Source: a virus (Duplodnaviria > Heunggongvirae > Uroviricota > Caudoviricetes). Taken from it: 10,190 nucleotides of DNA. Under the pieces are notes generated by a model that did not search any database, was not told the origin of the DNA, and saw nothing but the letters and a program-made list of their open reading frames with translations. Below are positions 9,312 through 9,461 of this stretch, in pieces (within the stretch, counting starts at the first letter, position 1; the number at the start of each line of letters is the position of its first letter). The stretch is taken from the IMG/VR virus record IMGVR_UViG_2740892233_000002; one strand, given 5' to 3'. A program made the position numbers and the translations under genes.

Positions 9312-9314
9312 TCC
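8907..9314. repeat. Two tandem 204-bp units (8907..9110 and 9111..9314) with the N-run occupying the last 10 positions of the first unit
   Basis: 8907..9100 vs 9111..9304 align at a constant 204-nt offset with ~8 mismatches (~96% identity); 204 = 68 codons, so the reading frame is preserved if the N-run is exactly 10 nt. Confidence 0.85.
9101..9110. other. Run of 10 N at the junction of the Nu1 tandem units
   Basis: Ten n; occupies the position homologous to 9305..9314 (Nu1 RBS/start region). Confidence 0.95.
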
Positions 9315-9461
9315 TCACCTCGCAAAAACTCTCACCTCACAATCACAACAAAACCGGTCATGTCCGGTTTACATATCTATTTTTTGTGCATGTCCGGTTC
9401 ACAGAAGACCTGTTTTTATATTTTTCATATAGTTAACTTGAAGAGAAACCGGACATGGTTC
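9312..9461. promoter_or_regulatory. Putative cosB-type terminase-binding region (non-lambda) between cosN and Nu1
   Basis: Three copies of the 11-mer catgtccggtt: 9359..9369 and 9389..9399 direct, 9447..9457 inverted; the first lies inside the imperfect palindrome aaccggtcatgtccggtt. An AT-rich spacer (acatatctattttttgtg) between sites 1 and 2 could bind IHF. Position relative to cosN and Nu1 matches lambda cosB. Confidence 0.5.

Follow-up and report, generated by a model that had tools for sequence, protein, structure and literature searches.

The DNA analysed here, called the window throughout, is a stretch of 10,190 nucleotides from the Caudoviricetes virus record IMGVR_UViG_2740892233_000002. 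Its right-hand part carries a cos site resembling that of phage lambda, followed by the genes of a Nu1-like small terminase subunit (TerS) and a gpA-like large subunit. We focus on the segment between the lambda-identical end of the cos site and the TerS start codon (9312-9461), which we call cosB'. A first-pass annotation, made from the letters alone, had picked out this segment as a candidate new cosB/Nu1 packaging specificity joined to a lambda-identical cosN. We number the elements in lambda style, with bp n being window position 9507-n, and mark those of cosB' with a prime; the genes of the unit lie on the minus strand. From cosQ to the large-subunit gene, the unit is laid out as follows.

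9696..9702, minus strand: cosQ, GGGTCCT, located on the following contig, whose overlap with the cosB' contig is 64 bases.
9495..9506, minus strand: cosN cohesive end, GGGCGGCGACCT (window strand: aggtcgccgccc), identical to lambda bp 1-12.
9462..9494, minus strand: bp 13-45, identical to lambda in pairwise alignment.
9465-9477, within bp 13-45: match of I2 type to the site for integration host factor (IHF), TATGAAAATTTTC, from a consensus scan.
9447..9457, minus strand: R3', bp 50-60, an exact repeat CATGTCCGGTT; lambda R3 is at bp 50-65.
9423..9435, plus strand: I1', bp 72-84, IHF-consensus-like TTTCATATAGTTA in the AT-rich spacer.
9389..9399, plus strand: R2', bp 108-118, an exact 11-mer inverted relative to R3'; lambda R2 is at bp 109-124.
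9359..9369, plus strand: R1', bp 138-148, the third exact 11-mer, oriented as R2'.
9352..9362, minus strand: fourth copy with one mismatch, CATGACCGGTT, bp 145-155, oriented as R3' and also present in phage PhiR12_1.
9147..9311, minus strand: predicted winged helix-turn-helix (HTH) domain, TerS residues 1-55, with a GTG start at 9311; allele 2, contig end at 9111.
8598..9100, minus strand: rest of a Nu1-like TerS gene, allele 1, codon 3 to stop, encoding the lambda-like C-terminal half.
6698..8626, minus strand: large terminase gene (gpA-like), 67% identity to lambda gpA over 569 residues.

Across all 10,190 bases there are three exact copies of the 11-mer CATGTCCGGTT, and they all lie within 9359-9457. 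In shuffled sequences, the average number of exact matches was 0.01, and three were not reached in any of 200 shuffles. The first-pass annotation had described three copies of catgtccggtt, two direct and one inverted, around an AT-rich spacer, and this description proved accurate for the exact copies; the spacer between the inverted pair (9400-9446) has a G+C content of about 28%. It overlooked the fourth, one-mismatch copy at 9352-9362 on the minus strand. This copy overlaps R1' to give an 18-bp imperfect palindrome, and is the nearest to lambda R1 in both orientation and position, the R1' cluster (bp 138-148 plus 145-155) facing lambda R1 at bp 151-166. The lambda identity claimed for cosN was borne out as well and extends from the cohesive end through bp 45 with no differences. 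The TerS start codon lies at bp 196 (window 9311), compared with 191 in lambda. I1' agrees with the IHF consensus WATCAANNNNTTR at 11 of 13 positions, as a consensus match only; lambda I1, AAACATTAAGTTA at bp 74-86, also scores 11 of 13, and the two sites share a strand and nearly coincide in position. For these comparisons, the position of lambda R3 was taken from a paper, those of R2, R1 and the start codon from the lambda sequence, and that of I1 from a consensus scan. cosQ at 9696-9702 is spaced from the cosN copy at 9661-9672 as a lambda-like cos requires (about 24-30 bp), and the order from cosQ to cosB' is contiguous in the finished Escherichia coli O26 11368 chromosome. In a complex cosB, R2 is oriented opposite to R3 and R1; R3' and R2' fit this rule, and the exact R1' has the R2 orientation. 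Because the element positions, the IHF-like site and the start codon all track those of lambda, the anatomy appears to be that of a lambda-type complex cosB with its R sequences exchanged, the repeats lying at the positions of R3, R2 and R1. This agrees with the earlier claim that cosB carries these repeats rather than lambda R-type elements.

The window itself was scaffolded from contigs whose overlaps had not been merged. Runs of N lie at 131-140, 662-671, 9101-9110 and 9526-9535, and two contig overlaps are left in place, with 8908-9100 repeating 9112-9304 at 96% identity and 9462-9525 repeating 9628-9691 exactly. The segment 9312-9461 lies wholly inside one contig (9111-9525), which carries the TerS start, cosB' and cosN without a gap. 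The finished E. coli O26:H11 11368 chromosome contains this contig, unbroken and at 100% identity, with the terminase genes following on one side and cosQ and a ylcI-family gene on the other. Since 9111-9525 matches finished chromosomes at 100%, cosB' is not an assembly artefact. We also considered the 237-residue open reading frame (ORF) at 8598-9311 on the minus strand as a genuine duplicated Nu1 and rejected it, as it consists of two TerS alleles fused across an N-run. The two alleles are 96% identical, with the protein differences V29I and E63D, which means that prophages of this type number at least two in the source genome. In addition, 9536..9627 on the minus strand holds a piece of lambda-type cosB that runs from lambda bp 137 to 46 and includes R2, I1 and R3; scaffolding placed it there from another prophage. 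It adjoins the second cosN copy (9661-9672), is together with the adjoining cosN 95.6% identical to lambda bp 1-137, and is found 100% identical at other loci in the same Shiga toxin-producing E. coli (STEC) genomes. The source strain therefore carries both cos classes.

The TerS gene sits between cosB' and the overlapping gpA-type large-subunit gene. Its GTG start at 9311 is the one annotated in RefSeq, where the protein has 169 residues, and the Nu1 sequence quoted in the first-pass annotation is the translation from 9311 downwards on the minus strand. The Pfam family Phage_Nu1 (PF07471) matches at 67.4 bits against a cut-off of 30, over residues 61-150 only, and the BLASTP alignment with lambda Nu1 is confined to residues 73-164, which are 46% identical to lambda residues 86-177. 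Residues 1-60 lie outside the Pfam match and gave no BLASTP match to lambda Nu1. Neither the protein nor a profile of its domain family gave a meaningful sequence match in the Protein Data Bank, where lambda Nu1 (1j9i) was not recovered, and no NCBIfam model matched TerS. The profile phrog_57, which lambda Nu1 also matches at full length, covers TerS residues 1-169 (E=8.5e-56); the isolated N-terminal domains of the window protein and of lambda fall on the same part of this profile (E=9e-11 and 7e-26, respectively), and hhalign aligns the two domains collinearly with E=0.006. By these profile comparisons, the N-terminal domain of TerS is a remote homologue of the lambda Nu1 domain, and the earlier description of it as only distantly lambda-like is upheld.

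We examined the fold of this domain with an AlphaFold model built from a 32-sequence alignment, for which the homologue searches gave mainly short fragments. The model shows a strand, a helix at residues 4-10, a second at 15-22, a two-strand wing and a helix at 38-54, with a predicted local distance difference test score (pLDDT) of about 86 over residues 1-50. The top Foldseek matches are all winged HTH domains of the MerR/excisionase type, with E-values of 0.26-1, which are not significant; such values are usual for a domain of 55 residues. Template modelling scores are 0.58 for phage small-terminase domains (7lwr, 7lw0), 0.59-0.64 for RppC (6hlk, 6hn7) and 0.57 for lambda gpNu1 (1j9i). In addition, Pfam HTH_17 is matched by 10 of 17 relatives of the domain. 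The N-terminal domain is thus predicted to be a winged HTH of the gpNu1 (MerR-like) fold. When aligned, the recognition-helix segment RQLRRLQKL shares two of nine residues with RTIQNWQEQ of lambda.

The large terminase gene of the window carries an in-frame stop at 6917-6919, after codon 569 of 642, so that about 70 C-terminal residues are lost. Lambda gpA reads on at this position, after the shared VEK, presumably with a tryptophan. The lost part is the prohead-binding part in lambda. The gene is annotated as a pseudogene in O26:H11 11368. Given the truncated large subunit, the window copy cannot package alone and would need a large subunit in trans.

We then asked how the sites vary within E. 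coli, using a set of 26 distinct cos versions from IMG/VR prophages, O26 11368 and phage PhiR12_1. In the stretch from bp 45 to 195, variation affects 4 of the 33 R' columns and 64 of the 118 other columns (Fisher p=1e-5). The variable columns concentrate in the two spacers, while R3' is invariant and R2' nearly so across the set. PhiR12_1, a sequenced and viable phage with an intact large subunit and K-12 given as the host in its record, differs from the window by 15 substitutions in 215 nt, none of them within the four R' elements. Such a pattern of variation indicates that the R' elements are under purifying selection.

Relatives of the N-terminal domain, 42-68% identical, occur in Aeromonas (phiARM81ld), Escherichia (vB_EcoM-705R4, E. 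whittamii), Enterobacter, Pseudomonas, Microbulbifer, Azospirillum and others, and mostly carry TTCCGGTTCCGGT at the R3 position, with CATTTCCGGTTCCGGTT at the place of R3'. In 22 of 29 distant relatives, a cosQ-like GGGTCCT is followed about 75-85 nt downstream by the motif TTCCG[GC]TTCCGGT, which places the motif at the R3 position; the start codon is anywhere from 20 to 96 nt away from it, while the spacing to cosQ is constant. In phiARM81ld, whose record starts at a lambda-like end, CATTTCCGGTT occupies bp 52-62. Of the seven loci without the tandem motif, six are among the seven lowest-ranked matches (42-54% identical). Because most of the domain relatives share the motif at the R3 position, the TCCGGTT core appears tied to this domain family. 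A similar pairing is seen within a single complete genome, E2865. There the cosB' contig is found 100% identical next to this TerS, and at another locus the lambda-type cosB piece of the window is found at 100% beside a Nu1 that is 99% identical to that of lambda; both loci share the cosN and the flank seen in the window. By comparison of these loci, the DNA sites and the TerS domain change together. The co-variation of Nu1 and cosB put forward in the first-pass annotation is thus supported by the matched pairs of E2865 and by the core travelling with the domain in distant relatives.

Many of the relatives show a further site inside the gene. Among the 22 loci with a single R3-position site, 16 have an inverted AA[CG]CGGAA inside the TerS gene at +173 or +182 from its start, about 200 bp from the R3 site (loci L004-L006 and L087-L101). 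This in-gene site covers the codons for E/K-P/A-E within an otherwise variable linker, and its Glu codons are both GAA, even in the G+C-rich Azospirillum-type loci, where GAG dominates elsewhere in the gene. GCGGAA stands at the in-gene position in five of seven loci with a TTCCGC-type R3, as against none of 15 with the TTCCGG type; L087, a sixth TTCCGC-type locus, has a GCGGAA copy about 20 nt further on. The pairing of GCGGAA in the gene with TTCCGC at R3 is suggestive, although confounded by shared ancestry. Judged by these arrangements, the TCCGGTT recognition family includes both simple and complex cosB forms, as is the case for N15 and Monarch.

Separately, across L087-L105, the first repeat unit of R3 is TTCCGG in loci with Q or R at residue 17 of the putative recognition helix, and mostly TTCCGC in those with T, S or A, L103 being the one exception. 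This residue may mark a contact, although the association is confounded by phylogeny.

Taken together, we consider it probable that the docking sites of cosB' have been exchanged and are read by the winged HTH domain of TerS, giving the unit a packaging specificity of its own. In the mechanism we propose, the winged HTH domains of a TerS dimer would bind the inverted pair formed by R3' (bp 50-60) and R2' (bp 108-118), with R3' as the proposed main docking site of the small terminase. IHF would bend the AT-rich spacer at I1' and so juxtapose R3' and R2', and the R1' cluster (bp 138-155) would contribute affinity. The lambda-like C-terminal half of TerS would then hold the gpA-like subunit over the lambda-identical cosN, 50 bp away, for nicking. 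With a separate specificity, no cross-initiation would occur between the unit and lambda-specific prophages in one cell, and defective copies belonging to its class would still be open to rescue in trans. A separate specificity is the most likely reading, given that neither the recognition helix nor the R sequences are those of lambda, 21 or N15. With respect to lambda, the differences amount to a match at one of nine positions over bp 55-63 in fixed register, and at two of nine in the helix. More broadly, we lean, by a modest balance, towards a reading in which TCCGGTT R sites and a winged HTH TerS of MATQxEVAxHL type constitute a fourth lambda-like cos packaging specificity, spread across Proteobacteria in both architectures, with the E. 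coli complex form built on the lambda cos scaffold and a simple form in Aeromonas, Pseudomonas and Azospirillum.

Several points weigh against this interpretation. The exact R1' is oriented like R2', and the orientation of lambda R1 is found only in the one-mismatch copy; the call of I1' is based on an 11-of-13 consensus match. On the protein side, the Foldseek E-values are not significant, the domain of the window itself falls below the Pfam HTH thresholds, and the large subunit of the window copy is truncated. Both the conservation and the association of domain with site use related sequences, and the p-values overstate their independence. In addition, when aligned by motif, CATGTCCGGT and lambda R3 CGTTTCCGTT share 7 of 10 bases, and the N15 terminase is known to package lambda DNA, so that some cross-recognition between the R' and lambda types is possible. 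The anatomy, the conservation, the co-occurrence of domain and sites and the predicted fold class are shown by the comparisons above, while binding, the role of IHF and the exclusivity of recognition are what we infer from them.

These shared bases raise an alternative in which the sites are correctly placed and R' is a diverged lambda-type R, with lambda-type terminases and those of the present type cross-packaging in one or both directions. The TCCG core and the 7 of 10 motif-aligned bases common to R' and lambda R3 would be expected in that case; the two DNA-binding domains are remote homologues within one PHROG family, and asymmetric cross-packaging has been documented for N15 and lambda. 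Yet register counts in lambda, and with the register fixed from cosN only one of the nine positions of bp 55-63 agrees with lambda; the helices RQLRRLQKL and RTIQNWQEQ agree at two of nine residues. Moreover, the two types occur side by side in single genomes as strictly matched pairs, a pattern to be expected were mismatched pairs to function poorly. We therefore regard such overlap as unlikely, albeit with a real share of the probability.

The repeats might instead be operators for a transcription factor, or act upstream of the terminase genes as a hairpin, in RNA or DNA, or as a terminator. At 9351-9370 (minus strand), R1' can pair with its inverted partner in a hairpin with a 7-bp stem, and on the sense strand a T-rich tail comes after it; R3' also gives a small hairpin with a terminator-like score, and R3' and R2' could pair as a 12-bp stem. 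A promoter scan of 9200-9530, however, found no promoter-like site, and an Rfam scan of 9000-10190 found no match. The distant relatives keep the direct tandem repeat with no inverted partner nearby, so that the sequence, rather than its pairing, is what is conserved. Likewise, the constant distance to cosQ and the variable distance to the start codon imply that the element belongs to cos and not to gene expression. A regulatory role for the repeats accordingly seems highly improbable. The pairing of cosB' with this Nu1 could also be a chimeric join of unrelated contigs, for which the four N-runs, the duplicated contig ends and the foreign lambda-type cosB piece at 9536-9627 might be adduced. 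Against this, the Nu1 start, cosB' and cosN lie on the single unbroken contig 9111-9525, which is found at 100% in finished chromosomes, and this leaves the explanation with a negligible chance; for 9111-9525 itself, a chimeric join is ruled out by the finished genomes, with the expected continuation on both sides.

The preferred reading, exchange of the docking sites together with the domain that reads them, can be set beside the known systems. In comparison with lambda, the unit has the same cosN, bp 1-45 and cosQ, and equivalents of R3 and R2 inverted around an IHF-like site at near-equal coordinates. The protein plan is also the same, with a predicted winged HTH N-terminus, a TerS C-terminal half of 46% identity and a gpA of 67% identity. 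The R sequence is CGTTTCC(G/T)TTCT in lambda and CATGTCCGGTT here, where there is an extra, overlapping fourth copy and the exact R1' is inverted relative to lambda R1. Phage 21, the classic second specificity, follows a like logic, sharing cosQ and cosN with lambda and having its R sites and recognition helix changed together. The Feiss papers present 21 and lambda as close relatives that differ at few contacts; the domain described here is far more diverged from lambda, with 21 taken as those papers describe it. As in N15 and Monarch, one recognition type appears here in two architectures, and the E. coli form is complex, like that of Monarch. The relatives with a single R3-position site upstream of the gene and an inverted copy about 200 bp downstream inside it recall the rR2 of N15. 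The R3 of N15, GAGGTTGTTGTT, is unlike the one found here, and the N15 cohesive end differs at bp 9 and 12, where the present unit has the bases of lambda. A further parallel is the phage-inducible chromosomal island EcCICFT073 (Rpp), which likewise combines a lambda-like cosQ and cosN with an unrelated cosB read by a winged HTH of the same fold. Rpp is without a large-subunit-binding domain and heterodimerises with the small subunit of its helper, in contrast to the complete TerS beside its own large subunit in the present unit.

The unit is common. At least 80% of the 415-base query is covered in 1156 of 5426 complete E. coli genomes, and up to eight lambda-type cos sites occur per genome in Shiga-toxin-type and related E. 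coli. In the phage collection searched, the unit was found only in the five PhiR12 records. It has also been pictured before. If a few letters that look like text-extraction errors in the supplement are disregarded, the prophages Sp4 and Sp14 of E. coli O157:H7 Sakai share both this Nu1 and the beginning of this cos (…TTTTCCGGGATCCATGT). Asadulghani et al. 2009 (PMC2669165) aligned the Nu1 of Sp4 and Sp14 with that of lambda in their Fig. S8, where the cos alignment reaches only to …CCGGGATCCATGT, i.e., the first bases of R3'; cosQ, cosN and the IHF site are marked, and the cosB repeats and a separate specificity are not discussed. The same study detected packaged Sp4 DNA in O157 Sakai despite the disrupted Sp4 nu1, and attributed the packaging to the terminase of Sp14, which has an identical Nu1 and a cos of this type. 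Feiss et al. 2015 (PMC4669245) stated that only three specificities are documented among lambda-like phages, those of lambda, 21 and N15, and expected more diversity, as prophages of the same specificity sharing a cell waste packaging events.

Our literature search for cosB and specificity, which did not take in two subscription papers by Feiss, turned up no treatment of this type. In full texts, the motif strings (catgtccggtt, ttccggttccgg and their complements) gave only unrelated matches of primer type, and no cos analysis was found in the literature on PhiR12 and phiARM81ld. The novelty suspected in the first-pass annotation was thus reduced by the database searches, since the pair is abundant and partly pictured already, and it survives in one respect: the pair is real and has not been characterised as a packaging specificity in the literature we found. 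That this specificity is a distinct one we infer from the comparisons above.

A few other features of the region may be noted. Between R1' and the GTG, a direct repeat TTG[CT]GAGGTGAG is present on the sense strand at 9314-9325 and 9331-9342, 17 nt apart, and its proximal copy overlaps the ribosome-binding site. The hairpin at R1' looks terminator-like and stands just upstream of the terminase genes. A small ORF at 9282-9482 on the plus strand spans cosB', and a different small ORF of PhiR12_1 (L002, 3249-3371) is annotated as a hypothetical protein. As they overlap both conserved sites and variable spacers, the small ORFs across cosB' are probably spurious. On the far side of cosQ, a 64-residue ORF at 9872-10066 on the plus strand corresponds to the YlcI/YnfO-family gene annotated beside cosQ in O26 11368 and E2865.

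The unit represents a concrete and abundant candidate for a fourth packaging specificity. Simple and complex cosB designs can also be compared within its TCCGGTT family, which is the second natural case of this kind. In the Shiga-toxin-type and related E. coli strains that carry the unit, virulence genes move from one bacterium to another when defective prophages are rescued in trans, and knowledge of the specificity classes would predict which prophages can package which. The window illustrates the situation within one assembly, with a truncated large terminase, a second TerS allele of the same type and a lambda-type cos. If true, a fourth specificity would sort the lambda-like prophages of multi-prophage E. 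coli into groups that do not cross-package, and such groups would decide which defective prophages each helper can mobilise.
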